DNA of 60,995 nt, the filler included, from Jimgerdemannia flammicorona (taxonomy: Eukaryota), in NCBI GenBank assembly GCA_003990765.1. It is 3 parts of 3 records of this genome, joined end to end, with 100 filler letters (N's around TTAATTAATTAA, not from the genome) between each part and the next. Parts side by side here need not be neighbours in the genome. Positions count along the whole stretch, not along the records: positions 40,736 to 60,995 come from RBNJ01001722.1; 2 more parts are not named here. One strand, given 5' to 3'. The notes beneath the pieces were generated by a model that was not told where the DNA came from, did no database searches, and saw nothing but the letters and a program-made list of their open reading frames with translations. A program made the translations under genes and the position numbers. Positions 10,347 to 59,790 of this stretch are shown here, one piece after another. Position 1 is the first letter of the stretch. Every line of letters starts with the position of its first letter.

Positions 10347-10385
<39 letters not shown>

Positions 10386-12490: not shown

Positions 12491-12548
<58 letters not shown>

Positions 12549-13798: not shown

Positions 13799-13872
<74 letters not shown>

Positions 13873-22501: not shown

Positions 22502-22565
<64 letters not shown>
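22015..22565 (+). mobile_element. Short 5'-truncated LINE tail with long polyA
   Basis: Inverted homology to 20375-20840 and 46100-46580; AATAAA near 22475 and ~60-nt A-tract. Confidence 0.8.
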
Positions 22566-22567
<2 letters not shown>

Positions 22568-29400: not shown

Positions 29401-30565
29401 TGGCTTGAAGCCAGGTCTTCTGTGCTGCTAGCACTATATTGTCATCATTTTCCACATAGGTTGTGGCTGCAAATACTGCTCTTGCTGGTCCTCAGAGACT
29501 GAAGAGTATGAGAGCTACTTGCTGTATTGCTGTCAAGGTCCTTACAGCAGCATACTGCTCAAAATCATCAATGAAGATAATGATTGATTCATCTGAAGTA
29601 TATTCATAGAATATTGGTAGTCTCATATCCATCTTGTCTAGATGTCTTAATTCGATTTATATGGTTGTTCTGGTGATAGCAGTTATTTGTTATTTAGCTT
29701 AAAAGTGAGGAATTAATCTTAAATCACCAGCCAATAGGCACCAAGTTGTAATGTAGCAGACACATAACAGTATAAGTATATCAGATTTCTGTATCTTGAA
29801 AACTTGATCTTCTTTGACTCTGTAGAGTCCTCAGGAGATAGGGGTGGGTGAGTTTGAAGTATATCTGCCCACAGGCCTATTAGTTTCTTTGATTTCTCTT
29901 TTGCTTTGAACTATTTCAATCTGAGGTTTATTTACTTTGGATACTGAGATATTTATACAAGTTTGCTAGCTATAAGATAGCTAAGTTATGACTATGTTTT
30001 CTATGAGTCATTTTCTATAAGTGTAAATTCTTTATATCTGTACAATCTCTATAATCATGAAGATTCTACATCTGTAGAATTTCTATATTTATAAAGTTTT
30101 TACATTTGTAAAAATATGACTGCTATTTATAAGACTATACTATATTTAAGAATCAGATTCAGATACATACCATGATCAAATATCTATTCTCCTGATTTAT
30201 ATTACTAATTCAGATCAACTATCACAATTGCCAAGATTCTCTATAAAGTTATTTTAAGACAAACTTATTTACTAGATTATCCATGATAGTCAGCCTTTTA
30301 TAGTTATTGAGAATTTAGAGCTAAAAGATCTTTTTGTCTTCTGAAACTGGACATTACTATTTATTCTACTGGAACTATATGAAATAAAATTAGACTGGTC
30401 TTTCAATGAAAATGTGATATTGTTAAAATTATACTATTGGTAAGATTTAATATTTTAATATTAAATATGAATTTGAATATTTTAAAGTTAAATGGCTTTG
30501 AATTGATCTTATTTTGATTTATTTATTTAAAAATAGAATGTAGCTAGTTAAATATTCTTTACTAT

Positions 30566-32523: not shown

Positions 32524-32526
32524 ACT

Positions 32527-32543
32527 TAGTGCCCATTGGCTGG
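32527..32543 (+). promoter_or_regulatory. Primer-binding site shared by families A and B
   Basis: T(A/G)GTGCCCATTGGCTGG 3 nt after the LTR end; family A has TGGTGCCTATTGGCTGG. Cognate tRNA not determined (His- or Gly-like acceptor). Confidence 0.75.
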
Positions 32544-32579
32544 TAATTCAAGATGAATCCCTCACTTTTAAGCTGAAAA

Positions 32580-35500
32580 ATGAACAACCCCCACAATAAC
32601 TACCCTGACTACAAGAGTCACCCCTACAAGAATTCAAGATAAGATAGAAATACATCTCCCCACATTCTATGGATATACTACTGAAGAGTCAATTCTGACC
32701 TTCATTGAAGACTTTAAACAATTCGCTGCTATATGAGCCCTTGGTGTGGATGTACAATTGGCCCTTCTGCCAGTCAGCCTCAGAGGACCTGCCAGAGATA
32801 AGTTCAATATAGCCACTATTGCTGATAATAGTATAGCCAAACTTGCCAACATGAAGGCCTTCCTCAGAACAACATACTATACTGAAGAGATTAAGCAAGC
32901 TCTCAAGGATCAACTCAATACTATCTGCTAGAGACTCAGTAAAGATTTCAACTCATTCTATACCTGAATCTACCACCAGATTGTCTTGGCTGGCTATGAT
33001 GATACCCTCAAGGAACAAATAGTGGATTCAACCTTCCTCAAAGGAGTTCACCCTGAAATTGTCCTAGCAATCTGGTTTACCCTAGCTGCACTGACCCTTG
33101 ATCAGAAAGTGGTCTTTGTACAGAGATATTGGACTATCAGACATCCTGCTGAACACTCAATGGAGAAAATAACTAATATCAAGATAGAGTCATCGAAGCC
33201 AACCAGTATTATATCCACTACAGTTGTAATCAGACAATCATCCCCATCTACCCCCAAGACAGCCAAAGCTGACCCAGTGGAGGAACTCACCAAGCAGTTT
33301 GCCAAAATGACTACACACCTTAGTGATATTGTTAGAGAAGTCTGAAGTACCAACAGGAGACCAGTGCAGAGATTTGCAGCTACTACAGAAGAACACAATA
33401 TCATATACTTCAGATGTAGAGAAGAAGGCCACTATGTAAAGAATTGTATGACTGAAACAAGATGCAAAGTCCAACCAAGCAATGCTAGCAGAACCAGAGA
33501 ACAAACCAATACAGTAGTCATTGAGGAGATTGGTGATACTGATGATGAAGAATACTACAAGGAGCTTGAATTCTACCCTGCTTTTGAAGATACCAGAACC
33601 TGGTCTAAGTCCTATGACAAGAAGAGCAACAGCAAGCCAGTTGGAAGACCAAAGAAGACCTCAGCTGTTACTATTCAAAGCAAGATCCAACCTGAGGAGA
33701 TTGATCAAGATATGGAGTTAGATGAAGCTGCCCACCAAATTATTGAAGGCACTATTTCAGTCTCAGGAGAAAGTGAAAGCAAGAAAGAATAGAAGCTGTA
33801 TAAGACCAAGATCTACCAGTATGATATCTACAAGGACCTCAAGAAACAGAAGACCAATGCTACTTTTGGACAACTAGCTAAAGTCCCTACCTTTAGACAA
33901 TAGTTGAGAGTAGGACTTGCAACTACTGCCAAGAATCAAGAGTACAAGATTATAAAGGCTCACAATGTACAAGAAGAATCTGAAGACTCAGGCAAAGAAT
34001 CTGAAGACTAGTGCAAGACATCAGCCTATATCTCATGTCAAATCAAAGACTGTATCTTTAATGCCATCATTGATACTGGTACTGGAGGATGTCTTATGAG
34101 CAAGAAGACAATTGACCACCTAGGCTGGGACATTGAAGAGTCCACCAAGATGGTCTATGTTACAGCAGATGGTATATGAGCTACTCCTCTTGGCAAAATC
34201 TGAGAAGTCCCCATCAAGATAGAAGGAGCTACTATCCCAGTAGATGTGATTGTTACAAGTACCACCAACTATAACATCCTTATTGGCAACCAATGGCTTT
34301 ACAAGGCCAAGGCCATCATTGACCTCAATGCCCAGAAGATGTAGATTAACTATAGAAGAAGAAAGGTATGAGTCTCTATTAATGTCCACAAAGGAGTCCT
34401 ACCAGATATGGAGAAAGAAGATAAAGAGGACACAGAAGTCTTCATGTACTTGGTGAATAAGAACAAGAACAAGAACAAGACATCCAAGCTCACAGATGAG
34501 TAATAGTACAATAAGATCATTGATGATTATGCCCCTTAAGGAAGATACCCCCATAGTACTAGGATGTACTGCTCTGAACACCTGAATGACTGCTGATTCT
34601 GTATCAGTGAAGTCAGGAAAATCTGCCAACAGAAGCATGAACAAGAAGCTGCCAAAGCAAAGAGGAAAGCTGAAGAAGATGACCAACCCCCCAAGCTTCA
34701 AGCTAACAGTGATGATGAGGAGGAACAAGAACCAGATATCACCCTCAAGGTCAAGAAGTTCTACTCTGAAGCCAAGATCCCAGAATACAAGACTGAAGGA
34801 GCCATAGAAATAGACCTTATCAGTATTAAAGATGCTATCCTTGAACTACAGACCACTACCCTACTTGGCACCAGAATTGGAGTCAAGCTGCCAGAGAACC
34901 ATACTGGAATTATCAAGACTAGGAGCAATCTGGCCAAAAGTGAAATCTCAGTTGAAGGAGGAGTAATTGACCCTGATTACACTGGTGAGATCTTTCTCAT
35001 AGTCAGGAATTACAACCCCATCACTCCATTTAAAGTCAAGAAGTATGACAGGATTGACTAGATACTGATCTACAAAATCAAGAAGCCCAAGATCACTGAA
35101 GCCATCAAACTCATCAAGACCAAGAGAGGAGAACAAGGCTTTGGATCTACAGGAAGAGGAGCCTATACTACTACCAAGATTACCAAACTTGAGCACAAGA
35201 AAGACAAGGACCAGAACAAGCATACATATATCATTGGAGAAAACTTTCCCCTGAAAGAACAACTTCTCAAGATCCTGTACCAGAATAAAGAAGTACTTGC
35301 TATAGACTTCAGGGATATTCACAATCAAGAACCCAAGTACTATCATGAAGTTGATACTGGTGATACCAAGCCCATCTATCAGAAAGCCAGACCCATACCA
35401 TCTGCCTACAGAGAATAGCTGTAAGCAGAACTCAAGGAAATGGAAGAAGCCAGAATTATCAAGCAAGCTATCAGCCTCTAGGCTTCACCCATTGTCCTTG

Positions 35501-37263
35501 CCCCAAAGAAAAGAAGCAAGTCTGGAGAGTTTGTACCAAGACTCTGCATTGACTATAGGAAGCTCAATGTAATTACCAAGAAGAATAGGCAGCTTTTGCC
35601 AAATATTCAAGAAATTCTTACTACTCTTAGAAGTAAAGCCAAATACTACACCACCTTGGATCTGTTTCCAGGCTTCTATCAGATTAGTCTCACTCAAGAT
35701 GCCAGTGAGAAATCAGCTTTCATCATATCTGATACCACCTATATCTACCTGCAAATGCTATTTGGAATGTGCAATGCTCCAGCAAGTTTTCAGTAAATAA
35801 TGAACAGAGTCTTCAGCAATGAAATTGGAAAATGGCTCTTTGTCTATATTGATAATGTGATTATCTTCAGCAACACTACATGGGAACATATCAACTACAT
35901 ATAACTAGCTCTCAAGAAGCTCAAGAAGCATGGCCTCTATATCAAGCCCAAGAAATGTAAGTTTGCAGCTTAGAAAATTGCCTACCTAGGACATCTCATC
36001 AACCAGACTAGAATCCACACAGACCCCATAAAGATCAAGGCTGTTGCAGTCTACCCAAGACCCAGAACAACTACAGAAGTCCATGCCTTTCTTGGACTGG
36101 CCAGCTACTACAGAAGATTCATCAAAGAATACTCCAACATTGCAGCACCTATCTATGAGCTACTGAAGAAGGAAACCAAATTCAAATAGACCAAGAAATG
36201 CCAAGAAACCTTCAATGAACTCAAGACCAGGTTGACCCAAGCATCTATTCTCAGAAGCCAGATTGGAATCTAGAATTCATTCTGCAGACAGATGCAAGTA
36301 CTATAGGACTTGGAGCAGTCCTAGCTCAGAAGAAAGATAGACATAAATATGTCATCTCTTATGCAAGCTGAGATACCCACAGAGTAGAACAAAACTATAA
36401 GTTATGCAAGCTTGAATACTTAGCAGTAGTTTGGGCAGTAGACAAGTTCCACTACTATCTAGCTGGGAAATACTTCACCATTCAAACAGACCATTCCACT
36501 CTTGCCTGGCTATTCTACACTCTGAACCCCAAAGGAATATATACTAGATAGATCTACAGGCTGCAAGAGTATGACTGTACTATTAAGCACCACTCAGGAA
36601 GAACCAACACCAATGCTGATGTACTCTCAAGGATACCCCGAAACACTCCCATCAAGACTATTCAACATAAATAAGGAGTTATACTATGGATTAATTAACT
36701 ATCTTGGACAGTGGAAGATGCTCAACCACCTCAAACCCTAGACAATCACCATCATTAACCAGACTTGGAAATAGTTTGAACTAGACAACACTATACTCAG
36801 AAAAGGAGGAAATCTAGTAATACCTGAACATAAGAAGTATCAAGTAATGAAGAAAGTATATAAGCAAGGATACTTAGGAGGAATCAACACATATGACAAG
36901 ACAAAAAGAACCATATGGTGGTCCAAAATAGAAGAAGACCTATACCAGTTTATCAAAGGGTGTGACAAGTACTAAAAACAGAAATAAGATCAGCAAGACT
37001 AGGCATCCAGGTCATCAAGAATTGAGTCTATCCCCTTCCACCACATTGCAATAGATATTGTTGGACCACTACCAGTAAAACTATCAGGAAACTGCTATAT
37101 TATAGTTATTGTAGACCTCTTTATCAAATGGATAGAAGCAGGAGCATTATAAGAAGCCAATGTCCTCTCCATAGCTGACTTCCTGCACCGAGAAATCATC
37201 TGCCACTACAAGATACTGAAGCAAATCACAATAGACTGCAGCACAGAATTTGTGAATCAAGAA
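32580..37263 (+). pseudogene. Gypsy family B gag-pol (essentially one frame): capsid, CCHC knuckle, protease, dUTPase, RT, RNase H, integrase (truncated by LINE)
   Basis: YFRCREEGHYVKNC; AIIDTGTGG; ASPIVLAPKK..PRLCIDYRKLN; LFVYIDNVIIFS; LQTDASTIGLGAVL; PFHHIAIDIVGPLP. Many transition-type stops. Confidence 0.93.
34744..35153 (+). pseudogene. dut: dUTPase domain within Gypsy pol
   Basis: LKVKKFYSEAKIPEYKTEGAIEIDL; IKTRSNLAK; VEGGVIDPDYTGEI; YDRID*ILI; TKRGEQGFGSTG, i.e. the five trimeric dUTPase motifs. Confidence 0.93.
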
Positions 37264-40200
37264 CTGGGGAGATCGACTGGTCTGGGGTGAATGATGCAGG
37301 CCAGGGTGGGAATCAGTGAGGGTGGGCTCATGCTACTGCCCGGCGGCTAGGGGAGAGAGGATTGCTTGGATCAAGGAACTACTGGAGGAGGGCATTCTCT
37401 TAGAGGATGGGGTTGATGTTCTTGGGGGTGATTTTAACATGGTTTGAGATTTGCAGTTGGATAGGACTGATGGAGGAAGACATGCTGGTGGGAGGAGTGG
37501 TGGTCTGGATGCATGGAAGGAGGTGGAAAACCTTAGCTCCTTAGGGGATATGGGCCGAATGTGGTGGGGTGACACCAGGGTCTACATGCACTGGGTGAAT
37601 GGCTTAGGGACAAGGATTGACTGGATTCTGACAGCTGAATGTTGGGGTGCTGATGTCTGGAAGACTTTGGAGGTGGTGTGGTGCCCGTGGTCTGATCACT
37701 GGGGACTGATTGGGCAGGGGCAGTTTGGGGGAAGTGGAGATGGACCCAGACATTGGTGTCTTAACTCCTCCCTGCTGGCTGAGAAGGAGTTGTGGGACTC
37801 ATGGGTAGAGGAGGTACAGGCAAAGCTTCCGTTTTGGAGGCAGGAGGGTTTATCTGTGGGTGTCCGTTGGATGAGATTGAAGGAGGCTGCAAGGGTTTAT
37901 TGGGGAGGAGCTGGTAGGGAGGCGGGAAGAAGGAGGAAGAGGTGAGTACAGTCTGCCTCCAATAGGCTGAGGAGATTGCAGTTGGAGTGGGCAGATTTGC
38001 TTGCATCTGATGAGGTGGAGGATTGGAGGTTAGTGAGGGCGAAATTGGAGGTTGTAGAACTGCAACAGGTGTTGCGAGAGGAGGAGGAGATTCATATGTG
38101 AGGTATGGCAGCCAGGCTTAGGTGGCAGGGGCTTGAGGAGGGGGAGCAGCCTACTAGGTACTTGTCTAGGCTCCTCAAAGCCAGGCAGGTGAGGCACAGG
38201 TGGGATGGGATCTTGGATGCAGAGGGAGAGCTGGTGTGAGGCACACAGCAGATCCTGGGAGTGCTGAAGGAGAATTGGCAGGATCTGTAGAGTGAGGAAG
38301 AAGGGGGTGCTGATGCAGAGGCAATTGGTGACACACTGGAAGAGTGGGAGCTGCCACAGGTAGAGGGTCTGGGTGACTTGACCTTACCTGTCCAAGAGGA
38401 GGAGATACAAGGTGTCCTGGCAGCGACTAAGCTTGGGACAGTGCCAGGGGAGGATGGGTTACCGTGGGACTTCTGGAAGAAGATGGTGGAAGTCCTGGAG
38501 ATGCTGGGGGAGATGGCGGCCCTCTGTGACTATGTTCTTCTGAATGGCATGTGGGTTGGTGAGCAGGACTTAGGGCTGGTGGCCCTATTGTATAAAGATA
38601 AGGGCCGGCGTGAGGATTGGAAGAACTGGAGGCCAATCATACTGCTGGATATGGATTGGAAGTTGGTGACTAAGGTGATTGTTGCAAGGCTACAGAAGGT
38701 TACTCAACAGGTACTAGGGGAGGAGCAATGGGGCTTTGTAGGTGGTAGACTTATAAGAGATGGAACTGCCTGGGTACATGGCATTATTAAAGGTGCCCGG
38801 GCCTGTGGACTGGATGGGAGACTGGTCTTTTTGGATCAAGAGAAGGCCTACGACCATGTTCAGTGGGTTTGGTTGGGCAAGATACTGGACAGAATTGGTG
38901 TTCTGCTACAGTTTCGCGCCTCTATGTTGAGTTTATTGGAAGGGAGTTGAGCAGCGCTGATGTATAATGGTCACAGGGGTTTGGTGTTCCCCTTGGGGAG
39001 AGGAGTCCCTCAGGGGGACCCTCTGTCCCCTATCCTTTATGCACTCTCCTTGGAACCTTTGATGGACAGGATCCATAAGAGAGTGACTGGGCTCTCTGTA
39101 TATGGTGTGGAATGGAAGGTGGGGGCCTTTGCAGATGACATGGTGGTTGGACTTGGATCAATAGCAGATGTAGAGGCTCTTCGAGAAACAGTGGAGTAGT
39201 ATGAGGCACACTCTGGAGCAAAGCTCAACTAGCATAAGTGTGAGACAATGGTGCTGGGGAATGGGCTAGTGGGAGGGGATGTCATTGGAACAATTGTTCC
39301 CACAGGAGAGGTGGTGCAGTACCTAGGTATCTTCCTCTCCGTATATGGATCAGTCCTACCGTGAATATGGTGGGAGAGGAGGGTGGCCATTTGGAGAGAG
39401 GCTCTAAAAGGCTGGGGGGGTCGTCACATCTCCCTGGCAGGGCGGGTGGTGATTCTGAATGTATACTGGTTCCCCAAGCTGTGGTATGTGGCATATTACT
39501 TAGACTTTCCTGCTTGGGTGGTGAAGAGGCTGATGAAACTGACTAGGGAGTGGATTTGGGCTGGTAGAAGGGCTCAGATCAGTTGGGATACCCTTGTTGA
39601 GCCAGTGCTTAGGGGAGGCCTGGGCCTTGTGGATTTCCCTAAGTGTCTATACTGCCTGTGAGCTTAGTGGTTGAGAAGGGCGGTTGATCTACAGGGTGGA
39701 GGTTGGGTGCCATTGATGAAGAAGGTGTGGGAGATGAGAGTCTCCCCCCGGGGGTCTACAGGGGATCTACTCTCTTTGGTGGGTCTGAATGGGAGCCAAC
39801 AGTTATGGTATAAGGGCTTCTGGTGGGGAGTGGTTGAGGGGGCACACTGGATAGGCCTGCACTGGCATGGGAATGAGGGGGAGGAGGTATGGGGTCCAGC
39901 TATGTGGTGATGGAACTGTCTGCTTCTAGGGGGAGTTCTGCTAGCTGAGTTTGACATTGGTGATGGAGTAGAGTGTCAGCAGTGGATTGGACAGGATCTT
40001 TGGCCGAGTAGCTGGCAGGTGGTGAGGATTGGTGAAGAGTGGGATTGGGCACGGATCTGGTCTTGGTGTACAGAGGTCCGGCAGTGGCTCCCTCCCAAGT
40101 TCTGGGTAGTATGGTGGCATATGTTGTGGAGGAATGTTATGTTGAACTTCCGTGCTGGGCATCTGATGGATGGGGGTCGGCTGGATTGTGAGGAGTATTA

Positions 40201-40635
40201 TAATGTTGGGCAAGTTGGGGGTTTTGTGCAAACAATGGAACATTGGCTGGGAGAGTGTGAGGTTCTGAGTGACTTTTGGATAGCTGTAGGGGACTACCTT
40301 GGAGTTGTAAGGAGACAAGATGGGGAGAGAGGTCGCTGGGAAGATCTGGAGTCTAGACTTGTGGGAGGTGTCAGTAATAGGTGGCTTACTGTAGGATGGA
40401 TTGTAGCAGTGTGGGTGGGGTTGGCAGGACATTGGCTCTTTGTTTTTGAGGAGGGATAACAGATCAGGATACAGGAGAAGTTATTGCGATGGGAGGAGTT
40501 GGTGGCGGATTTGTTGACAGGGTGGTGGGTTGGGTGGGGACTGCAAGGTGGGCAACATCGCCGTCTGGTGGAAGGGATCTGTGAGCAGAGTGGTGGGTGG
40601 GTGGCAATGGTGTTTGACAAAGTGGTTTTTCGTCG
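37264..40635 (+). mobile_element. L1/Tx1-clade LINE ORF2 (APE endonuclease C-half, RT, C-terminal Cys/His region), 5'-truncated, inserted in Gypsy B integrase
   Basis: VLGGDFN, TRIDWIL, WSDHWG; PGEDGLP, NWRPIILLDMDWKL, FLDQEKAYDHV, GVPQGDPLSPILY, FADD, LAGRVVILN, GGLGLVDF. Scattered stops. Confidence 0.93.
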
Positions 40636-40735
40636 NNNNNNNNNNNNNNNNNNNNNNNNNNNNNNNNNNNNNNNNNNNNTTAATTAATTAANNNNNNNNN
40701 NNNNNNNNNNNNNNNNNNNNNNNNNNNNNNNNNNN
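40636..40735. other. Assembly gap / contig linker
   Basis: N44-TTAATTAATTAA-N44. Confidence 0.97.
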
Positions 40736-41284
40736 AAAAAAAAAAAAAAAAAAAAAAAAGATATAAAAATAAAGTAAAATATAATATAACTATTTTTTTA
40801 AAAAAATATATATATATATATATTACTATATATTTTTCTTAAAAAACCTAAGTTATATCTTATAGTATATAATTATATAATATATTTTATTAATAAAGCT
40901 TAATAATATCTCTTTAAATATATTATAAAATTAAAATAGAATATGTAAAAATAGAATATATATATATATTATATTTTTAAAGTAATTATTAAAATAAATA
41001 TATTAGAAATTTATTATATAAAATTTTAAATAAAAATAAAAATAAAGATTTATTTATTAGAAAAATATAATTATATATAATAAATAATATTAGCAAAAGC
41101 TTAAAAATTTTAAGTTTAATATATAATAATATTTAGTTATAACTTATTTTGATATTTTTCTCTAATTTCTTTTTTTTAAAAAAAATATTCTACAATATTT
41201 TAGTATTTTCTAAATATTTAAAAGTCTTCTTTTAATATTAAGACTTTATTAGAACTTTTTTTATTTTTTATTTTTTATTATTAT

Positions 41285-44200
41285 TATAATAGTTGATCTG
41301 AATTAGGAACATGAATTAGAGAAATAGATATTTAATTATAGTACCTAAATCTGATTCCCAAATATAGTATAACCTTATAAATAGTAATTATTTCATAAAT
41401 GTAAAAACTTTACAAATATAAAGATTTTATAAATATAGAGAATCTATACTTATAAAAAGTGACTTATAGAAAATATAGTCATAACTTAGTCACCTTATAT
41501 ATAGCTAGCAAACTTATATAAATATCCTCAGTATCTAGAGTGAATAAACCTTAGATTGAAATAGTTCAAAGTAAAGAGAAAGTGAGAGAACTAGTAAGTC
41601 TGTAGATAGATATACTTCAAACTCACTCATTATATTCTGAGGACTCTGTAGAGTCAAAGAAGATTAAGTTTTCAAAATACAGAAATCTGATGTACTTACT
41701 CAGTTATATATCTACTATATTACAACTTGGTACCTATTGACTAGTAATTTAAGATAAATCTCTTACTTTTAAGCTAAACAATAAATAACTGCTACTATCT
41801 AAACAATCATATAAATCAAACTAAGATATCTAAATAAGATAGATATGAGATTACTAGTATTTTATAGATATACATATCTCAAATAAATTAATTATCACTT
41901 TTATTGATAATTTTAAGCAGTATACTGCTATAAGAACTCTAACAGTAAGACAATAAGTAGTTCTCATACTCTTCAGTCTCTGAGGCCCAGTAAGAGCAGT
42001 ATTCATAGCTACAACTTATGTAAAAAATAATGATAATTCTGTACTAATAGCATAGAAGATCTCCTACTATATAGATGAGATCAAGCAAGCTCTGAAGGAT
42101 TAGCTCAATATAATATGCTAAGAAATAAATAAGAATTTAAATATATTCTATACTAAAATTCAATATCAGATAATTCTTAAAAATTATAATACTACTATTC
42201 AAGATCAAGTAGCTAAGACAACCTTCATAAAAAGAGTTCACCTAGAGATAGCTATAGTTATCTGCTCATCACCAGTAGTCCTAGATCTGTCACAGAAGAT
42301 CACCTATATTCAGTAATACTAGATAGCTAGATATCTACAAGACTATATAATGAAAAGAGTCACTGAAGTTAGAATTGAAGCACCCAAAGCAACTAGTATA
42401 ATTCCCACCAAAGTGATCAATTGAAACACACCTCAATCAAGAGCTACTAAGTAGTAAAGAAACAGTAACCTTATGGAGGAACTAGCTAAGAAGTTTACTG
42501 AAATGACTGCCCACTTAGGAGATATAGTAAAGAAAATCAGAGGAAGAGATTGTCATCCAGTTCAGAAGTTTGTTACTATCTCAGACAAGAAGAGAGGTAT
42601 CTGCTATACTTGTAGAGAAGAAGACCACTACTTATATAAATGTATGAGTGAAACCAAGTATAAGGTACAGCTAAGCAATACTACCTAGAACAGAGAACAG
42701 ATCAATATTATTATTTTTGAAGAAATTGGAAAATCTGATAATAAAGAATGAGAGATCTTCTCTGCACAGACTACTAAGAAAGGTATTTATAAAGAACTCT
42801 ACAAGAGACCACCAGAGAGACTCAAGAAGAACTCAGTACAGAAATAGATAGAAACTACTATAAAAAGTTAAGTAAAAGAAATAGATCAAAATATGAAGCT
42901 GAAGCAAGCAGTTCAAGATATTATCCAAGGAACTACTCCAGTCCTAGCCAGTGAAGAGGAAAAAAAAAAAAAGCTTTACAAAACTAAGATATTCAAGTAT
43001 GATATCTTCAAGGACCTCAGCTAATAAAAAGTCAATACAACCTTTGACCAGCTGGTAGAAATCCCCACATTCAGACAGTAAATAAGATATAGACTGACTG
43101 AGATAACTAAGAAGTAAGGTTAGAAGATAACTGAGGTCAACAATGTTCAAGAAGACTCAGGAGAAGAAAGTGAAGATAATTACAAGACATCTGCCTATAT
43201 AATCTGTCAAATTAAAGATAGAATCTTTAAGACCATTATTGATACTAGAGCAGAAGAATGCCTCCTCAGTAAGAAAGCAGCAGACTGCTTAGATTGGAAG
43301 GTTGAAGAAGTAACCAAGCTGGTATTCATCACAGTAGATAGAACAAGAGCCACACCTCTAGGAAAGATCTGAGATATCTTCATCAAGTTTAGAGGAGCAA
43401 CCATCTTAGTAGATATTATTGTAACCAATACAATCAACTATGACATTCTTATCAGCAATTAATGGCTTTATAAAATCAGGACAATAATCAATCTGAATGT
43501 TTAGAAGATATAGATTATTTACTAAGAACAGAAGATGTGAATTTCCATTAATATTAACAAAAGAGTACTCTCTGAAATAAAGAAAGAAGAAAGTGAGAAA
43601 GAAGAGGCCTACATGATGACTATCTAGAAAAAGAAGAAAAAAGTTGAATGGATCAGTAAAGAGGACTGGTATAAGAGGATTATTGAAGAATATATACCAT
43701 AAGGAGTCTGCCTCTATAAAAATAAGATGTACTATATAGAACATATTAATGATTACTACCAGTATATCAGCACAATCAAGAAGATCTACTATGAAAGATG
43801 ACAGAAGACTCTTGAAAAATAGACAAGAGAAGAGAAAGAGAAGAAAGAGAATAATGAACTATTAGCTCTTCTGGAAGACAGTGATGATGAAGAAGAAATC
43901 AAAGTCAAGATTTAGAAAATCCACTCTGATGTAGTCCTATCAGAATATAAGTTAGAGAATGTAGTGAGAATGGATATTACTATAGTAGAAGAAACTATAC
44001 TTGAGCCCCAGACAACTACTCTACTTGCAACTGATCTAGAGATGACTATTCTAAAAGGCTATATCAGAATTCTCAAAACAAAAAGCAGCTTAACCAAGAG
44101 TAAGATTACTATTGAAGGAGGAGTCATCAATTTAGATTATATCAGAGAAATATTACTCATTACTAGGAACCACAACTCTATGATTCTATTTCTAATTAAG

Positions 44201-45457
44201 AAGAAGGACTGACTAGTGCAGATGTTAATCTTCCCAGTTCTTTAGCAAAAGATCATAGAATTCAAGAAGTTGGAGAAAACAGAGAGAGAAAGGAAGAGAT
44301 TCAGATCTATAGAAAGAGAAGTATTTGCTAGTACCAAGATCATCAAACTAGATCACAAAAAGGAGAAAACTACAAATAAGTATAGCTATACTATTGGAAA
44401 TAAATTCCTACTCAAGAAAGAACTCAAGAAGATACTCTATAAATTTGAAAATATTCTGGCTACAGATTTCAAGAATATTAAAAGAAAGACTCTATATTAC
44501 TATCATAATATAGATATAGAAGACACTGAACCAATCTACCAAAAAGCAAGACCAATTCTGCCAGCCTACCATAAATAACTCAGAGAAGAAATCAAGTAGA
44601 TGGAAGAAGCTTGTATCATCAAAGAAGCTAGTAGTTCTTGGGCTTCACCAGTTATACTAGCTCTAAAGAAAGAAAGTAAACTAAGAGAATTCACCTCAAG
44701 GTTCTATACCAATTACAAGAAGCTCAACCTGATTACTAAGAAGGATTGACAACCACTGTCCCTCATCAGTGACATTCTTGTGATCCTGAGAGATGAAGTA
44801 CAGTATTATAGTACTTTGGACTTATATATATTCAGAATTCTATCAAATCAGCCTTATAGAAGTAGTAAGTAAGAAGTCAACCTTAATCACTTTAGACAGA
44901 ACTTATATCTATTTGCAAATACTATTCAGAATATGTAATATACTAGTAAGCTTTTAGTAAATGATGAACAAAATCTTCTACTATAATATAAGAGGAAGTT
45001 GTGACAGTTGATCTGAATTAGGAATATAAATTAAAAAAATAGATATTTAATATGATATTTGAATCTGATTTCCAAATATAGTATATATAGTCTTACAAAT
45101 AGTAGTCATTTTACAAATATAGAGACTTTACAAATATAGAGATTTCACAGATATAGAATCTTTATAATTATAGAGATTTTACAGATATAGAGAATCTATA
45201 CTTATAAAAAGTGACTCATAGAAAATATAGTCATAACTTAGCCATCTTATAGCTAGCATACTTGTATAAATATCTTTAGTATCTTGAGTAAATAAATCTC
45301 AGATTAAAATAGTTCAAAGTAAAGAAAAGACAAGAGAACTAGTAAGTCTGCAGGCAGATATACTTTAAACTTACTCACTATATCACAAGAACTCTACAGA
45401 GTCAGTTTTCAAGATATAGAAATCTAACATACTTAGTTATATATCTGCTATATTATA
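41285..45457 (+). mobile_element. Gypsy family A, copy 2, internally deleted, with both LTRs (41285-41724 and 45000-45457)
   Basis: PBS at ~41728; gag knuckle CYTCREEDHYLYKC; IIDTRAEECL; dUTPase relic ~43900-44310 (IEGGVINLDYIREI); RT stops at ~44988, directly followed by purine tract AAGAGGAAG and the LTR; possible TTAT duplication. Confidence 0.9.
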
Positions 45458-46075
45458 TTATATATGTATCAAGTATCTTATCTTAGTTATAAACTTTTTA
45501 GTTATTTTTTATCAAAATCTCTTTTTAGTATTTTTTATGTATTTCTAAAATTCTTTTAGATTCTTTTTTTAGATTTTATATAAATATTTTCTCTTTATAT
45601 CTATTTAAATAAAACTTAGAATTTATTTTCTTAAAAATACATAAACTTTTAGTATTTTTTTAAGTTACTTAAGTCTACTAAAATCTTTTAAATTTAGTAA
45701 TAATTAAGTAAATAATACTTATTACTAAAAATTATTATATATATATATAATAATATTTTTTAATAATCATTAAGCTAATAATGATATATACTATATATAC
45801 TATTATATATAAAATTTATATAGTGATTTTCTTTTTAAGATATATAACTTATATTAGATTTTAACTTAATATAATAAAAATTCTCTTTTTTTAAACTTGT
45901 AGAAAGATATAAAAAATAAAAATTAACTCTATTAAATTATAGTAAATCAAGTAAAGAATTATAAAAAAATAAAAAAATAAAATAAAATTATTCTACAGAA
46001 TTAAGTTTTAAGTATTTTTCAAAGTTTATCAAAATTTATTGAGATTTATAGATTTGCCAGACTGTATAACTCAAT

Positions 46076-47250
46076 GTTTTTTGTTTTTTTTTGTTTTACA
46101 GACTCAGAGTCCTGCAGATTTTTATTAGAAGAGAACTTAAACTATATAGGCCAAAACTCTCCTCTACTATCTATTAAGTACTGCCTTCCTATTAACCTAA
46201 GCTAGCTATTATTCAGCAGCTCAATTATACTAGGTGCAGCAGAGCCTATGGTGGTCTATACCTCATTCTATATACTATGCTCTCTCTACTACTAGAGAGA
46301 ACTCAGCTATATACCAATAACTGAAAGCATATGAATATATATACAAAACCATGTCTAAGCCAAATAAAATAGCCTCTACTACCCTAAGGAGAATGATAGA
46401 TAAAGAAAAAACTCTTATCAAAGTATATTATAGTAGATAGGATCTAGTTCTCCCAGATGAAGTAAGTAAAGGACTTATATATAAGGTGGGAGGATATCTC
46501 TAATACTCCACTACTCAAGCCTGTGAGTCTCAATCACATTACCATATCAGCTCTCAATTCTAGTTAAGTATAACTAAGACATCTGAAATAGATAGCCTTG
46601 AGCCCCTCAACTCTTTTCAATGATCAAGGCCTAACTCTATATTACCAAAAGAAACTGAGAATAACATCTACTATCTAACTACTCTATACTAATCAAAAGG
46701 TCTCACCAAAGTAGTACCTCCCCAGCTCCAATGACTGCCCTCAGTCTAACATCCTACTGATTTACTATAAATACTCTTTCTCTTATCTGTAATAGCTATC
46801 TTCTCTCTTATCCTAACAATATCTAAAAAACAGTTACCTATATTAGAACTATACTTACTGAGAAGCTTGCTAAAGCCAGAAGGCCCCACCATAGGCACTG
46901 AGGACCTATAAGTAACCTATACTAGATACTTGATATCCAAGATTGACTAACTCTCTATATAATCTATAATATACTAAAATAATATCTTATTAGCAATGAT
47001 AAAAGGAAGAAAGCACCACACCAAAACAAGTACACCTCAGATGCAGCTGAAGATACAAAATCTGCAAAAAAGTAGAGAAGACACTGATCAGATACCAATA
47101 AAAGAGCAACTTATCACTATTACTCTCCTCCCACTATATTTTTACAGAAAACCAATCCAAGATAGAGGAAGTAATAATAGAGGAAAGAGAACTCAGAAAG
47201 TTGCCTACCAAATCTTGTGACTAGTAAGGTAGCAGAGAAAGGAGCTGGCA
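46076..47250 (-). mobile_element. LINE 3' extension fragment with polyA (T-tract)
   Basis: Colinear with 20375-21510. Confidence 0.8.
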
Positions 47251-49431
47251 CAACTCAATGTTTGCCGAGACTGACTTTAAGAGAGTTCAGGGGAAATTTG
47301 TGTGCCATCCGTAAAAAAAAAAAATTTGTGTACCCTAAGCCACAATTTCCTGTGCTGCTCCACCAGTCGAGGATTAACAGCTCAAAACGAAGTCACGCAA
47401 AATATCCCCTGTACCCTAGCGTATATCCAATATGCGTCAAACACATTCTGAAACGTAGACAGAAATAGACGGAAAAAATAGAATGTCGTTTTCGAAAATT
47501 CAATGCCCGCCAAGGTTCAAAGGAACCCCATATAGATGATGCATTCTCTGCACCGTATTTGCCAAAAGCATCAACCGAACGCCTTATGAGAAGCAGAACC
47601 ACCAAACACACGCAAATGGTCATGCAACAAGACCAAAATGTTTTAGAAAATCATAAGCCAGAAGCACAGCCGACACCCAACGAATCATGCACAAGAAAAA
47701 CGTGTAAACGTCAGATAAGGACACTCCCTACGTCACATCGCATGGCACGAATTAAAAAAAAAAAAAAAAAAACGGCGCACGACAGCGTGGATCGGGTGCA
47801 TTCACAAGAGCAACCAGCAAACGAGGCAAACACACCCCAAAGCGTTTACCGCAACCCCGCCTCGTCCATCCCGTGCGCGTTCAAAAAACGCAACAAGTTG
47901 ACTAGGAACTACGTAATGTGGAGGGGTATGCGCAGCTGTCCAGCGTTCCATTCGGGAAGGCATGTATTCCGAAAACGGGCCACTGACGCTATGGCAACCT
48001 ATTATGGACGTAGATTTGAAACAAGCAGCTTATCGAGACAAACAACGTCCACCGGGTTGTCAATTCAACATATGCCCGTTCTGCGCATCCCGACCTTGTC
48101 TGGCGGAACTGTTGATCGCGATCGCATTGGGCAAAGGATGCGACCACCACGCCCAGCCGGAAACACAAAAGTCCCGCATATAGAAATTCCAGAACGTTCC
48201 TAGAGTGACTGAGTGTGCTTAAACCCGCACACCCAGAAGCGGGGGGGGGGGGGCGACCCTCCTTCCATGCCACCCGCAACAAATAAACAAAAAACTGAAA
48301 CAAAATAAAAAAATTGTCAGCGTAAAAACAAAAAACCAAACCTTACATTATGCAACCACGAGACGAATGCACGGAGCCTGGAGGATTTTGACGCTCCGCT
48401 CGCCCCGCACTCCAGAGGGCAAGGTTTGCGCGCAGGGTCCATTTCGAGCAGCGCCTGTCCGTTATCAGATGAGCGGGGGTGATAAGGTTCACCATCACCG
48501 ATGAAGAGTATGCTTGATTTATCTCATTTCATTTCATGTCATCATTTTATGCCATTTCATCATTTCATTTTATTTCATTTCACTCACTCACTCACCCATC
48601 ATTCCACACACACACGCAACGATTTCACATTTCAAAGCATTTTATTTATGTATCTTATCAAGGACAAGTAAAAATAGCCCGACCATTTCGGGAGGTCATA
48701 GGATGGGGGATGCAGAACCACGCGAGTGTCAAACACGTCACCCCCCCCCCGATTGCATGACTTAGAGAACCCTTGACCGGTTTCAAACACCGCTCGTTGA
48801 CAAAGGGAACAAGGAGGTCCTGCGTCCGAGTATATTCGTTTGACACTTGCTCCTTATTGGCCGCCGGCCTGCATGGGTGGATGTGTCATGTTTGACAAGG
48901 ACCGAACCGTGCGTGGCTTGCATCTATGTGACACGCTACAGCGCTACACTATGAACCCTGTGTACGACGCATGCAACACGCTGCTCACATTTGTCACATT
49001 TGTCACATTCCAAGAATATTGGAGGGGGAATATTCCAAAGAGTATTTGGGGGGGGAGATTGTTTTTTTGTTCGAGGAAAACTTTGTTCACAAATCCCGAG
49101 CACCTACGATGGGATTTTATTGTAAGTATGTACAGTGCACGGAATTAATCTTCTTTCTCAGAGCAGGCGCCGATAGACACAAATTACTACAAAACGAGAA
49201 AAGGTTCTAATTCTAAGAGACCGCGAATACTTTTGTACAGATAGATAACATGACGATGCGCAAATGGAAAACCCGATAGCAACAAAAAAAAAAAAAAAAA
49301 ATATGGACAAGAATAACGAGGGATAATACAGATGATGGATGGATTGTAACGGAGGCATTAAAACAGAGCAAAGTATACTTTTTGGCTGAGAAGAGTATTT
49401 ACAAGCGAAAAGCGAACCAATTGTTAGCTTC

Positions 49432-50184
49432 CTAGTAAGCGGCCTGGACAGGCGCGACGCTGTAAATGTTCGATCCTTGGTACGGCGAGAAACGCTGGGT
49501 ACGGTAGTAGGCGACGTCATCGTCATCCGAATCAGAATCGGATTCCTCCTCGCCAGACACCTCGGACATGAACTCATCGAATTCGTCGGAGAAGGCCTCG
49601 ACGTCAATTTGACAGTCCTCGTCCGAGTCCATGCCGTCACCCTCGGGGGAATAGGGAGCCTCATCGGTGAGGTAGGCGTCGGAGGGGAGAAGAGTGGCGT
49701 ACTCGTCGATGCCAAACGATTGAATGAGACGCTCAAAGGCGGGTTCTTGGGGCTCATTATCGGATTGGCTGGACGGAGTAGGCGGCAGCGAGGAAACGGG
49801 ACGGACCTGCTTACCATCGCCGTTGGCGGTAGTGGGGACGACGGGCGAGCCGGAGGAGGGTGCTTGGGAGGAGCCGTTGTCGTCCGGGAGGAACGACCCG
49901 TACTGGTTGATGGCGAAGAGGGACATGAGCTCGTCAAGCTCGTTGTTCTTGGTAGATAATTCTGAGTTCACACTAGTAGCCAGGCTAATAGTGGAAGCAA
50001 CACACTGGTTATTAATAACCGTGGAGTCAAAGCAGCAGCAGCAGTCGGACTTGGCAGGGCTAACGGCGGCAAGAGCAGGGGTAGCCTTGGCGTGGCACAG
50101 AGGCATGTAAGAACCATCCCTGACACAACCAGAGAAGTTCTTACCATTGTCAAGAGACGGAGGAGTGAGAGGTAGCTCGATCAT
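49432..50184 (-). CDS. Hypothetical 250-aa acidic, disordered protein
   Basis: Intronless ATG ORF with GC-rich third positions; upstream TATAAA (~50295) and CCAAT (~50370) on the minus strand; no known domain. Confidence 0.7.
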   Translation of the reverse strand: MIELPLTPPSLDNGKNFSGCVRDGSYMPLCHAKATPALAAVSPAKSDCCCCFDSTVINNQCVASTISLATSVNSELSTKNNELDELMSLFAINQYGSFLPDDNGSSQAPSSGSPVVPTTANGDGKQVRPVSSLPPTPSSQSDNEPQEPAFERLIQSFGIDEYATLLPSDAYLTDEAPYSPEGDGMDSDEDCQIDVEAFSDEFDEFMSEVSGEEESDSDSDDDDVAYYRTQRFSPYQGSNIYSVAPVQAAY

Positions 50185-52346
50185 TTTTTTGTTCTGTGAG
50201 GGATTGGGAGTAATAGTGGGTTGGGGGTGAGTAGCTGAGGTGGAAGTGTGTATGGTATGGAAAAAAAAAGAGGGGCCTGTTTGGTCGGCAGTTTATATGG
50301 AGACACACCGTATCACACGGAGGTGTCCTCTGGTTGGCTGCCTGCATCGCCACCGCCCACAAATTTTCATTGGCTGATCCATCGTGATCTCCAACCCTCC
50401 AACTGCATCCGAAACCATCCTGTGCAACCATATGTCCCCCGAGCACGAAGAACACAAGCAGTCGCATCCAACCACCTCACAGGAATTTCCCGCAATTCGC
50501 CACCTTGCTTCCAAAAAAAAAAACAAAAAACAAAAACAAAACTACTGCGCTTCTTTGTGTCGTCACCACGCCCGGCCCAACAACCATCCACTCCCTTCCC
50601 CAATTATAGATGACCCTTCCCATCACGGCTTAAGTCCCTCGGGCGAATTCATACTGCATCACCACTGACAAGCTGGCTGGCCCGGCGTCCAATGATACCC
50701 AAACAATTGAACCCTCCGAAGCCTGCAAAGTACAAGCATACAAGCATACGCCCTGAAATTGAAGAGTGCGGTCTTGGCATTGGTCCATCTAAATTTTCTT
50801 TTTTGTGGCGAATATTTATTTACCTTTTCACCAAAGCAAATCATCAATTAAAATGAGCTCCGTAGTGCGACCGCGGTTTTGGCCGTCCCCCCTTCACAGC
50901 ATTTTCGCACATGCGCCCATTCCCCATTTCACATTTCACATGATCCCAATTTAGGTACTTCGTGATGGGCAGGCTCTTTGATGGGCAGGCTCTTTTTCCT
51001 GCTATCTCGGACTTTTTTCTGCCAAAGGACACGGATCAGAAAAACGGTTTAGAACACTGAGAAAAATTACATATTGAGTTCCCGAAAATATCACCATCAT
51101 AAATACAAACATTAGTTGAAGAAGCTCCCTTTGTCTATGTAATGCATGTAATGCCAGACGATCTGACCACGTGACCATTTCACACCCGAGCCGTCTGGTG
51201 ATGCCTTACGGACTCCCGTATACGGGGTGGGTCATGTGTCCGATGATCCCTCTCAGCGAACGCTCGGGCCACATGTCCGTCCGTAGCCGGGGGGACAGTA
51301 TATACCGCATGGCACACGGACAGGCAGGTAGGCCAATCGTGGTGATCTTTGGGTAAGTACCAGCGAGGCGAAGGAAAGTTTGGTAGGACTTGTGGCGAGT
51401 AAAATCTAAACAGGTTGCACTAAGGGTTAGGTTGATGTAACAGTCGACCGATTAGCGGGATGCTTAAACCGGTGATTTGAGGCGGTGGTTTCTTTTGGCC
51501 AATGGAATTAGCCGTACATGCAGTTGAATGACAGCGGTATTCCATCATACTGGGCGAGTGGGAGTTTCTGAAAGAGATGGTATATCCTCGATCGGAGGAG
51601 ACGACCTGTATAATTAGGAAAGACCGAATCTCGCAAAAAGTTCAAGGTTGCTCGGTGCACCGAGGGAACACCCGCGGAAGCGTCCCGATCCATACCAGGT
51701 GTGAATGCCGATTAGGTTATCATGCTTCAAGGCATTGAAGGGTTGCCTGGTTTGGACACCAAAAGTTACCTGCTTGAAGAGTGAACTTGCTATCGTCTGT
51801 TTTGAGTTGGTGCGTCTAGTCGTTAAGTGATGTTATCCGCTAAAAAGGGCGTCCTTCTACCTACCGGTGGTATTATAGACTGTGGCCAATCCATGCACCT
51901 GTGCTTTCCCATCCGACCCTTGGAGAGGATCGACATCTCGCCAATTTTGCCAACTCATCATACGAGCAAACTGACTCCCAGCGACCGATCCGACCCTCGA
52001 CCCATCTGCGAGCCTGTTCCAAGGGCAAAAGCGGCTCACCTCGGCGATGAACGCCACCGCCCGTAGGCCGGAATTCGGGTGGCATTTTAGCGGCTTGGGG
52101 AGACGAGGCATACTTTCCGGCAGCATGACTTGACCACGGGTTGTAGTGCTAGTTGTAGTTCGGGTAGAGGATAGCGGGTGAGCCAATCAGCAATTTCGAT
52201 GGTCAACAATTTTGTACAGACAAGGAACAAATGCCTTCATCTACCTCTCCTTCCGTTTCCGTTTCTTTGTACTATCCCCCCCCCCAAAAAAAAAAAAAAA
52301 AAAAAAAAAACTCCATCTCCTACATACCCGATTTGGGTATCCTAAA

Positions 52347-53060
52347 ATGCCTCAGCTCGTCAGGGATTGAGGCTGAGGTCTGCATTTGATCGCCACAAAG
52401 AAATCGCTCAGAAACCAAACACACTACTGAATCATGTCCGCCACAACTCGCCTGAACGACTTGCTGGGTCGAATCAAGCCCTGGGACCAAACCGAAATCT
52501 TGGCATGAAGAATCGGAAATTCCGTGATTTTAACGATCAATTCAACGATTGCCTGCGAACCCGTGCCTACCTCGCCACCTTGCGCTTGTCACCGTTGGAG
52601 CCATACCTTGCCTATTTTCAGCCCCGAGAACTCGAAAACTTGAAGCCACTCGCCCAAGGCGGATTTGCCAAAGTTTACCAGGCAGACGTTTGGGTATCTA
52701 ACATTGTTACAAGGTGACCGCCAAAGAGTTGAGAAAGTCAATGGTCAAAGAAGTGAGTTCCCATTGGTGTAATATATATATAACATTTTCCAGCCAACTT
52801 CCATTTCCAAAAATCTTGTTATTTCTTCATCTCACCAACACAGTTAGTGCTGAATATTTATTTGCGGAAATGACACCAGCAATCTCCCTACAATGAGGAT
52901 TGTTGCTTTCAAAACACCCCATTCCCAATTAACTGACATTGGCACTCTCGAGAAGCAGTCTTGCGAAAAGATGGTGATTGGTATACTGCTTTGACATATG
53001 CCATAAAACCTGCTTGTTGCTTGGCCAATATTCACGATATCATCAGGATGGCAGTGTCCG
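52347..53060 (+). pseudogene. Truncated protein kinase N-lobe (TKL-like) preceding LRR exons
   Basis: YFQPRELENLKPLAQGGFAKVYQA, frameshift near 52710, VTAKELRKSMVKE, intron 52753-52843, then stops; catalytic loop not found. Confidence 0.72.
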
Positions 53061-53129
53061 ACAACTGCAGGGTTAGCATACCGCAATTGCTTACAGCTAA
53101 CTGCTAGTTTATCATTCATTTATGTTCAG

Positions 53130-53585
53130 AGAGAACTGCCAGCTTGGGCGAGCCGGGCGCCTTCGCTGAGCCTCAGCAGCAGAACACAACCCGTACGTCA
53201 GAATTTCGTGAACCATTGTTTGCAGCCGTGTCATCTAATCAATGTTCGAATCTGCTAACTCTCCATTCATCATAAGGAAGTAGGACTGGTGGCATTCTAG
53301 CCGAACTTCTCGAGCAGTATACACCTCGCATGAGCTGAATCTATCTGGTATGTCAGTAATGTGTGAACTATTTGTTGGCAGGAAATTAAGCTTGTTATAT
53401 ATTCCAATCTTCTGACCTCCTGTCATGTTCAGGAAAGAACATCAACGATAGAGAAGCCAGCGTTCTCGTTCAATTTCTGGAGCAGAATACAAATATGGTC
53501 AAGCTCAATTTCACCGTGTGCCAACATTTCTATTTAATATTGTTTTGAAGGTGTGCTGGAGGAAGCTTATCCTTCAGTTATGCTC

Positions 53586-53630
<45 letters not shown>

Positions 53631-53996
53631 AAATATAAGAAAATGGTATTGGAATCCTGTTCATCCGCATATTAGTTGAGTTTCTGAAGCAGAACACAAC
53701 CTTGACGGAACTGAATCTTAGTAGTATGTCAGAGTTACCTAATGGAATCATGCCCAGCATATGCATGTGCTGTTCAACGACTTTGACGACGAGGAGGTCA
53801 GAGCCCTTGCAGAGTCTCTGAAGGAGAACAAGACCTTGACCAAGCTGAATCTCTTCGGTATGCCAGAACTGTGAAACATCGCGTGTGGCTACGTGATGAA
53901 GCCAAGCGAAGGATGTGTGTGTGTTCGCTTATCTTCTCTTCATTTCAAAGGTAGTAAGATTAGTGAGAATGGGGCACGCGCCCTAGCCGAGTCTCT
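53130..53996 (+). pseudogene. RI-like (NLRC3-type) 28-aa LRR exons, first block (about 6)
   Basis: NINDREASVLVQFLEQNTNMVKLN; ILVEFLKQNTTLTELNL; DEEVRALAESLKENKTLTKLNL; SKISENGARALAES. One repeat per exon. Confidence 0.85.
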
Positions 53997-59280: not shown

Positions 59281-59790
59281 TATCACAAATTAATTACTCT
59301 TATATTTATTTACTTATATTTCATTAATTCTTATAGTTATATACATATATAAATTTATTTTATTTTATCAACTTTTATTATAATTTACTTACTGCTTATT
59401 TATTTAAACATATTATAGTATATATTATAAATTTTATATAATTAATATAAATATTAAAATTTGTATAATTAAAAATATAAAGTTATATTAAGAAATCTTA
59501 TTTCTATAATATTTCTTTAATATTTATTATATTTATAATAGAGTTATTTATAAAATTTAACTCTATAAATATACTGATTGATTTAATAATTATAGTAATA
59601 GCCAAAACTATAATAATGTTTAGTTATTTTTAATATTTAATTATATTATAGCTCCAATATAAATTCTATAAAATCCAAATTCTTACTATTAATAATATAG
59701 TATTTTAGCCTTTAAATGGTATTTTTTTATTATATTTAGATAAATATAGGCATTCATATAACTATTTTAAATTATATTACCATTGTTATA

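Follow-up and report, generated by a model that had tools for sequence, protein, structure and literature searches.

The transposon-derived repeats in a window of DNA from the fungus Jimgerdemannia flammicorona show a cytosine hypermutation that is limited to repeats and has a strong non-CpG component. The window, by which the whole analysed stretch of 60,995 nucleotides is meant, consists of three pieces joined by linkers (Table 1), and its central subject is a dead long terminal repeat (LTR) retrotransposon in piece 3, referred to here as element A, which was compared with two related copies in piece 2, copy B and copy C. The changes are overwhelmingly C:G to T:A transitions, which have removed CpG most completely, have struck CpA and CpC alike and have largely spared CpT. 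A first-pass annotation of this DNA had described the pattern as a CpA-specific repeat-induced point mutation (RIP) signature. That specificity is not upheld, as CpG is by far the fastest context, CpC equals CpA and the changes do not cluster in strand patches.

Structure of element A

Element A shows part of the features expected of a Ty3/gypsy-like LTR retrotransposon, namely an LTR pair with TG/CA ends, a zinc knuckle, a dUTPase and an RVP_2 protease match that falls below the cut-off. Pfam was run on a read-through translation with X placed at stop codons. No reverse transcriptase (RT) domain passed in element A in this search, most of pol being absent there with only the start of RT remaining. 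The alignment of A to B (44739-45023 against 24685-24963) extends about 23 bases into the 3' LTR of A, and most of pol may have been lost through a deletion mediated by a short internal similarity. In the retrotransposon family of element A and copy C the dUTPase domain lies between the protease and RT. Three 219-bp tandem units, 89-93% alike, at 31880-32524 are part of a repeat family that copy B also carries as a nested insertion (24964-26468). TTAT is found on both sides of element A, which is weak evidence in such AT-rich DNA.

The two LTRs begin with TATAATAGTTGATCTG at 41285 and TGTGACAGTTGATCTG at 45000, octamers that agree with those first reported, and at three sites (two TG, one CA) the 5' copy has TA. 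The opposite is seen at the far end, where CA is kept in the 5' LTR (ATTACA) and is TA in the 3' LTR (ATTATA). As TG is kept at the start of the 3' LTR and CA at the end of the 5' LTR, both LTRs have been mutated. The initial statement that every TG or CA had become TA is correct for the octamer only; over the LTR pair as a whole, 29 of 55 neighbour-matched CpA comparisons differ.

The coding region can be followed in a single frame from 41723 to 44998 with no frameshifts and 46 stop codons (20 TAA, 16 TAG and 10 TGA). At 24 of these codons a sense codon survives in copy B or in copy C from which C>T or G>A changes alone lead to the stop. These comprise nine CAA to TAA, eight CAG to TAG, three CAG to TAA, two TGG to TAG, one TGG to TGA and one TGG to TAA, changes of the kind that had been noticed from the sequence.

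Substitution spectrum and loss of CpG

Of the 3,543 sites aligned between element A and copy B, 640 differ by a transition and 80 by a transversion. The LTR pair of A differs by 60 transitions and three transversions, and three other repeat pairs give transition/transversion (ts/tv) counts of 197/25, 239/38 and 90/8, so that the ratio across the five pairs ranges from 6 to 20 and clears the benchmark for a RIP-like dominance of transitions, which is a value well above 2. Indels are few, with 13 events against 652 substitutions. When changes in lineage A are polarised with copy C as outgroup, the rates per ancestral site are 0.30 for C>T, 0.25 for G>A, 0.08 for T>C and 0.04 for A>G, with no transversion class above 0.02; the picture in lineage B is similar. 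The Kimura two-parameter (K2P) distance of the LTR pair is 0.177, and the background distance estimated from transversions is about 0.019. Clustering into strand patches is absent by a runs test in lineage A (85 runs against 92.3 +/- 6.5 expected, p 0.15) and likewise in lineage B (75 against 65.9 expected), a test in which repeated rounds of RIP would blur one-strand patches.

This spectrum, which is observed directly in the aligned copies, is reflected in base composition. There is no CpG at all in the 6.5 kb of 40736-47265 and the observed/expected (o/e) ratio of CpG is 0.03 over 20369-37000, while in genic DNA it is 0.87-0.97 within open reading frames (ORFs) of at least 90 aa and 0.88-0.93 outside them, where the GC content is 43-45%. 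The contrast in CpG between transposons and genes was among the first observations made on this DNA and is borne out. An absence of TpG and CpA enrichment, which that account implied, holds for 40736-47265 (TpG/CpA o/e 0.73/0.86) and fails for most of the piece-2 transposon DNA (1.16/1.08). The composite RIP index, calculated as TpA/ApT minus (CpA+TpG)/(ApC+GpT), behaves similarly, being +0.03 to +0.88 across 40736-47250, -0.39 in the piece-2 transposons and about -0.6 in genes; positive values have been used to denote RIP-affected DNA (PMC11105155).

Element A is flanked on both sides by AT-rich relics, as had been remarked. The left relic has CpA/TpG o/e ratios of 0.19/0.22 and CpT/ApG ratios of 1.96/1.88, and resembles relics at 45577-45854, 2216-2298 and 59423-59559, while 45710-45916 in the right relic matches 2283-2480 with 82-86% identity. 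As the flanks of A resemble other relics in the window, they are degenerate repeats and not native AT-rich spacers. Of the surviving cytosines, 22% are followed by T in genic DNA and 45% in the piece-2 transposons; the share climbs further to 58% for element A and 66% (145/221) for the relics. The equilibrium GC content calculated from the lineage A rates is 16.6%, and the relics stand at 7.8-17%.

Other parts of the window show intermediate compositions. The transposon block at 37001-40635, which contains an RVT_1 match (38291-38950) and has a distant relative at 2570-3761, is 52% GC and keeps 40 CpGs (o/e 0.19) with TpG/CpA ratios of 1.24/1.40; it looks like an early stage of decay in which CpG has been lost first. 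Leucine-rich-repeat-like tandem arrays occur at 53100-54000 and 57720-59050, with units of about 160-180 bp that are 62-84% alike, and no intact long ORF was seen. Towards 59 kb the second array merges into an AT-rich block, and over 57-60 kb the CpG o/e ratio falls from 0.97 to 0.38 and then 0.09 as GC falls from 0.46 to 0.37 and then 0.21, a gradient that looks as if this decay were encroaching on a repeated gene.

Sequence context of the C to T changes

To determine the context of the changes, a C/T difference was counted only if the adjacent base agreed between the two copies. A single ancestral CpG that decays to TG in one copy and to CA in its counterpart can then no longer distort the counts; 18 such CpG-derived double mismatches occur between A and B. 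The A-B internal alignment, the LTR pair and three other families were pooled over both strands and in both directions, a cytosine shared by both copies being counted twice in the denominator. So that no copy was counted twice, the pool omits the 198-bp relic pair (2283-2480 with 45710-45916) along with two of the three LTR pairings. Two old subfamily pairs of 65-67% identity (2570-3761 with 39089-40280, and 23285-24869 with 37256-35674) were also excluded, because their divergence mostly predates insertion; their ts/tv ratio is 1.5, and the changes in them are unbiased with respect to context.

In the pooled counts the differences amount to 9/9 for CpG, 344/984 (0.35) for CpA, 143/395 (0.36) for CpC and 151/1491 (0.10) for CpT. 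Both CpA and CpC exceed CpT (Fisher odds ratio 4.8, p 8e-51, and 5.0, p 9e-32, respectively) and are indistinguishable from each other (p 0.66), and CpT lies below both in five of five pairs. Under strict polarisation lineage A retains the pooled order, and lineage B gives 0.32 for CpA, 0.24 for CpC and 0.09 for CpT. The effect of the 5' base is milder, with ACA at 0.44, CCA at 0.43, and GCA and TCA both at 0.29; among the CpT contexts CCT reaches 0.23 against 0.07-0.09 for the other NCT triplets. The transitions, whose context ranking is thus also a direct observation, are neither context-independent nor confined to CpG, either of which had been named at the outset as grounds for abandoning a RIP-like reading.

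Confinement to repeats

All transposon repeats in the window are affected and the boundary of the affected DNA coincides with the repeat edge. At the right edge of the mutated block homology to the piece-2 copy ends at about 47250 and the first CpG stands at 47266, some 16 bp further on, after which there are 18 CpGs within the 416 bp of 47266-47681. An internal control is provided by a tandem repeat in genic DNA (Table 1), whose two copies contain 35 and 30 CpGs and differ by 55 transitions and 35 transversions (ratio 1.6), with all CpN contexts at 0.07-0.09. This control gives the background spectrum. As it is not hypermutated, duplication alone appears insufficient in this one case to attract the changes.

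Possible causes of the hypermutation

Methylation-linked deamination brought about by DNMT1-type and DIM-2-like enzymes is on balance the probable cause. Transposon-derived repeats would undergo a cytosine-specific C:G to T:A process with the order CpG >> CpA = CpC >> CpT, driven by the deamination of 5-methylcytosine where the repeat chromatin is methylated. The sites at CpG would fall to a DNMT1-type maintenance enzyme, and those at CA and CC, but not at CT, to a putative DIM-2-like enzyme. All CpG would be removed in a first step; CpA and CpC would then be eroded, giving rise to stop codons (CAA/CAG to TAA/TAG, and TGG to TAG/TGA), and the end state would be relics of about 8-17% GC with their last cytosines in CpT. 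The ranking of a DIM-2-type enzyme, CG > CA > CC with CT spared, is matched by the mutational proxy, except that CA equals CC here. Methylation as the cause, and the enzymes that would act, are what we infer from the observed pattern. Of the interpretations offered by the first-pass annotation, a repeat-directed mutator or non-CpG methylation is a fair reading of these data, and it is the CpA-RIP signature in its stated form that falls away.

Several points weigh against this explanation. The mechanism is read through a mutational proxy only, and all of the evidence comes from a single composite window of 61 kb and its five repeat pairs, of which several lie in a shared copy-rich neighbourhood. 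The species is named by a 100% protein match for piece 1 only, pieces 2 and 3 being linked to J. flammicorona through shared repeats and by no named gene, and the piece-3 ORF 49432-50292 (-) has one match, of 56% identity. Furthermore, in the account of Zymoseptoria tritici given in passages of PMC8016269, CG sites are the most methylated and yet are not highly mutated, whereas CpG is fastest here; CC is also methylated less than CA in that fungus, whereas CpC equals CpA in the pooled counts.

It is tentatively possible that the Endogonales have a true repeat-directed cytosine mutator. This could be either an ancient, pre-Dikarya enzyme of the DNMT1 superfamily (DIM-2/RID-like) or an independent invention, with a specificity for C before A, C or G and not T, which would inactivate transposons by nonsense mutation and turn them into AT-rich relics. 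If so, RIP-like defence would extend beyond the ascomycetes, and in genomes made up mainly of repeats k-mer screens would overlook it.

Canonical RIP, a premeiotic, homology-triggered and RID/Masc1-dependent process as in Neurospora, either retained or independently acquired in the Endogonales, is unlikely. J. flammicorona does make sexual sporocarps, and the mutated DNA shows numerous CpA to TpA changes (344 of the 647 pooled differences), a composite index that is positive throughout 40736-47250, a sharp boundary at the repeat edge and few indels. However, CpG is the top target and CpC is equal to CpA, when in Neurospora RIP uses CpC least of all contexts. The runs tests give no sign of strand patches, the tandem repeat of about 459-bp units and about 85% identity is unaffected, and the relics of 8-13% GC show that decay has continued far below any homology threshold. 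The ts/tv ratios of 6-20 are far above that of Arabidopsis transposons (1.2) and in the range of RIP-affected fungi as given in passages of PMC4352252, while RID and DNMT5 are reported, in the part of PMC8298701 cited here, to have been lost in Mucoromycota other than arbuscular mycorrhizal fungi, a loss that may extend to the Endogonales. Given the context order, the lack of strand patches and the decay to 8% GC, the pattern is not filed as RIP.

Ordinary decay, in which methyl-CpG loss is combined with slow, genome-wide AT-biased neutral drift in very old insertions and CpG methylation is the sole repeat-directed process, is improbable. It would account for the strongest signal, which is the loss of CpG, and is in keeping with the TpG/CpA ratios and negative index of the piece-2 transposons and with the 'no_rip' label given to this species in the cited part of the supplement of PMC12543289. 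A pattern of methyl-CpG decay alone is nevertheless not matched, as the CpG o/e ratio is 0-0.03 but non-CpG cytosines are heavily mutated too, non-CpG C>T being 15-30 times as frequent as each transversion class and strongly context-dependent. The window itself already points to a non-repeat spectrum unlike that of the repeats: the background of the control has a ts/tv ratio of 1.6 and no CpG excess, and genic DNA outside long ORFs stands at 43-45% GC against the 17% equilibrium of the repeat spectrum. The boundary lies at most about 16 bp from the repeat edge, and the LTR distance of 0.177 stands against a transversion background of about 0.019.

Another DNA cytosine deaminase, either AID/APOBEC-like or from a new family, could be aimed at repeat chromatin independently of methylation. 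The changes are almost wholly C>T, and the 3' ranking of A, C and G over T, together with a slight increase where the 5' base is A or C, does not correspond exactly to the preference of any methyltransferase. Known AID/APOBEC enzymes are, however, defined by the 5' neighbour, while the 3' neighbour dominates here; methylation is also the simplest account of the total loss of CpG, and the window contains no candidate gene, so that a deaminase of this kind seems a poor prospect. An assembly or sequencing artefact, or a mixture of pieces from different organisms, might be suspected from the three pieces of about 20.27 kb with their linkers, but is very improbable, as the pattern is local and follows repeat boundaries inside the uninterrupted piece 40736-60995, and repeat families are common to all three pieces.

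Layout of the window and neighbouring genes

Features are not readable across the joins between the pieces, and the left flank of element A is truncated at 40736. All three pieces have repeat families in common (self-blastn, 43 pairs listed). In piece 1 the ORF 11668-12468 (-), which encodes a RabGAP-TBC domain, matches a protein of J. flammicorona at 100% identity along 94% of its length, its next-best matches being from Mucorales with at most 58% identity. The host is accordingly a member of the Mucoromycota (Endogonales, Mucoromycotina) and not an ascomycete, a possibility that had been raised conditionally.

Table 1. Pieces, repeats and other features of the window
Feature	Position	Strand	Description
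Piece 1	1-20268		Gene-rich; small degenerate repeat block at ~2014-4270
Piece 2	20369-40635		Transposon DNA throughout
Piece 3	40736-60995		6.5 kb of degenerate repeats with element A, then genes; AT-rich block at end
Linkers	20269-20368, 40636-40735		N44-TTAATTAATTAA-N44; join three ~20.27-kb pieces
Element A	41285-45457	+	Dead LTR retrotransposon; paired LTRs, one stop-riddled frame
5' LTR of A	41285-41728	+	Start TATAATAG, end ATTACA; composite RIP index +0.51
Internal part of A	41729-44999	+	gag, protease, dUTPase, start of RT
Zinc knuckle (gag)	42602-42643	+	CX2CX4HX4C; read directly off translation
RVP_2 protease	~43136-43516	+	Pfam E 0.0011, 19.2 bits, under 20.3-bit cut-off
dUTPase	~43970-44302	+	Pfam E 8e-11
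3' LTR of A	45000-45457	+	Start TGTGACAG, end ATTATA
Copy B	24685-30228	-	Same retrotransposon family; LTR 29749-30228; 76-80% identity to A (blastn); comparison copy
Nested insertion in copy B	24964-26906		Other repeat
Copy C	32875-35814	+	Related subfamily; ~62% identity to A and B; outgroup for polarising
dUTPase ORF of copy C	34597-35061		E 2.6e-16
Left AT relic	40736-41284		7.8% GC, no CpG; truncated at window linker on left
Right AT relic	45458-46076		13.2% GC, no CpG
Degenerate repeat family fam3	46077-47250		Copies 20384-21504 and 22013-22524; ts/tv 239/38 and 90/8; right end marks edge of mutated block
Adjacent gene-rich baseline	47266-57700		GC 0.45-0.49, CpG o/e 0.87-0.88, composite RIP index -0.61
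Tandem repeat in genic DNA (internal control)	18878-20009		~459-bp units, 2.1 copies, 85% matches (TRF, Tandem Repeats Finder); no consistent ORF

Piece 1 also contains a DUF4291 gene at 16695-17603 (-), the best match of which is from Endogone sp. FLAS-F59071 (68%), the other relatives being bacterial (Microcoleus, Nannocystis and Planctomycetes, 53-60%). On these matches the gene is a candidate for an old horizontal transfer into the Endogonales. Two short-unit arrays, at 1578-1932 and 13659-14000, lie in genic DNA and have full CpG; they comprise a 14-bp tandem repeat with CpG in almost all units and a 9-bp tandem repeat within a 461-aa ORF (12967-14352, 60% GC). Homopolymer A/T runs of 30-60 bases are found in genic and repeat DNA alike (10349-10383, 12492-12546, 22504-22567, 9577-9604 and 53588-53628). 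Rfam and tRNA scans of the window gave no matches.

More copies were sought in metagenomes. A protein-based scan returned 522 pattern matches, none of which was confirmed. A degenerate DNA pattern found three loci of 6.7-36% GC, which were rejected as chance matches since CpGs are present in them; one of the three matched the window, at AT-rich low-complexity relics only, and none matched element A or its LTRs. Of the words sampled from 47000-53000, a fraction of 0.45-0.47 is present in two sequencing runs and 0.05-0.06 in four root metatranscriptomes, the latter being uninformative on habitat.

Comparison with known systems

The fungus in which this RIP-like footprint is seen is root-symbiotic, mycorrhizal and early-diverging, and for its group published screens have reported no such footprint. 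Passages of PMC8647823 state that RIP signatures were undetected in Gigaspora margarita or Mucoromycotina, G. margarita is likewise described as lacking them (PMC7082362), and the cited parts of a 2025 kingdom-wide screen describe RIP-like signatures as ascomycete-only (PMC12543289). No report of RIP in Endogonales or Mucoromycota came up in a literature search, which did not extend to the genome paper by Chang et al. (2019). The entries for J. flammicorona in the supplement of the kingdom-wide screen give a genome of 231 Mb with 73% repeats, a RIP_status of 'no_rip', and 23 k-mers enriched in non-coding DNA with none in repeats; TATA is 4.0-fold in non-coding DNA and 0.76-fold in annotated transposons (PMC12543289). 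This behaviour of TATA is expected if the most-mutated relics drop out of repeat annotation and nearly all non-coding DNA is repeat-derived, and in labelling the species 'no_rip' the screening method may have given a false negative.

A strong C>T process of this kind, confined to repeats and with a non-CpG component, in an early-diverging mycorrhizal fungus would widen the known range of mutational genome defence and would provide a natural setting for testing whether mutation is driven by DIM-2-like enzymes in hosts other than ascomycetes. It would also explain how a genome with 73% repeats keeps its transposons dead. Dating from LTR divergence would be about nine-fold too high here (K2P 0.177 against 0.019), and heavily mutated relics would evade repeat annotation.

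With RIP in Neurospora and the Pezizomycotina the repeats of J. flammicorona share C:G to T:A transitions, stop codons from CpA to TpA changes, AT-rich relics, few indels and a positive index over 40736-47250. They differ in that CpG and CpC rates are high, strand patches are absent and a genic tandem repeat is unaffected, and the host lies outside the Dikarya. CpG-biased C>T signatures are described for the transposons of Tuber melanosporum and of Pucciniomycotina/Microbotryum in passages of PMC4352252, in which the signature of the basidiomycetes is tied to DNMT1-class enzymes and not to RID. These fungi likewise have transposon-rich genomes and a CpG signature, and Tuber is also symbiotic and has a CpA signature as well (PMC4352252). 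From what is given there, the present case differs in having no CpG in 6.5 kb, in that CpC is also affected, in relics of about 8% GC and in its Mucoromycotina lineage.

Methylation at CG is on record for relatives of the species. Phycomyces, also of the Mucoromycotina, has DNMT1 and a Dim-2-type enzyme with methylation mostly at CG, according to passages of PMC7862722 and PMC13297926, and CG methylation of transposons is described for Rhizophagus irregularis in a passage of PMC8647823. Such repeat-targeted CG methylation in Mucoromycota would account for the loss of CpG, but the passages on these two fungi report no C>T hypermutation outside CpG (PMC8647823, PMC7862722).

The nearest parallel in mechanism is with Dim2 of Z. 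tritici, as described in passages of PMC8016269. At transposons this enzyme favours CG over CA and CA over CC and leaves CT almost unmethylated, and in strains that have it C>T changes build up in repeats in the course of mitotic growth. New mutations there are almost only at CA with CG spared, whereas here CpG is fully lost and CpC equals CpA; Z. tritici is moreover an ascomycete that also has RID, and the enzyme in J. flammicorona is putative. In both fungi, however, the mutagenesis is confined to transposons, with more than 95% of the changes in Z. tritici being C>T, and the methylation preference of Dim2 mirrors the mutational ranking found in J. flammicorona. A sexual cycle is not required for the Dim2 process, from which changes that are scattered and not clustered would be expected (PMC8016269).

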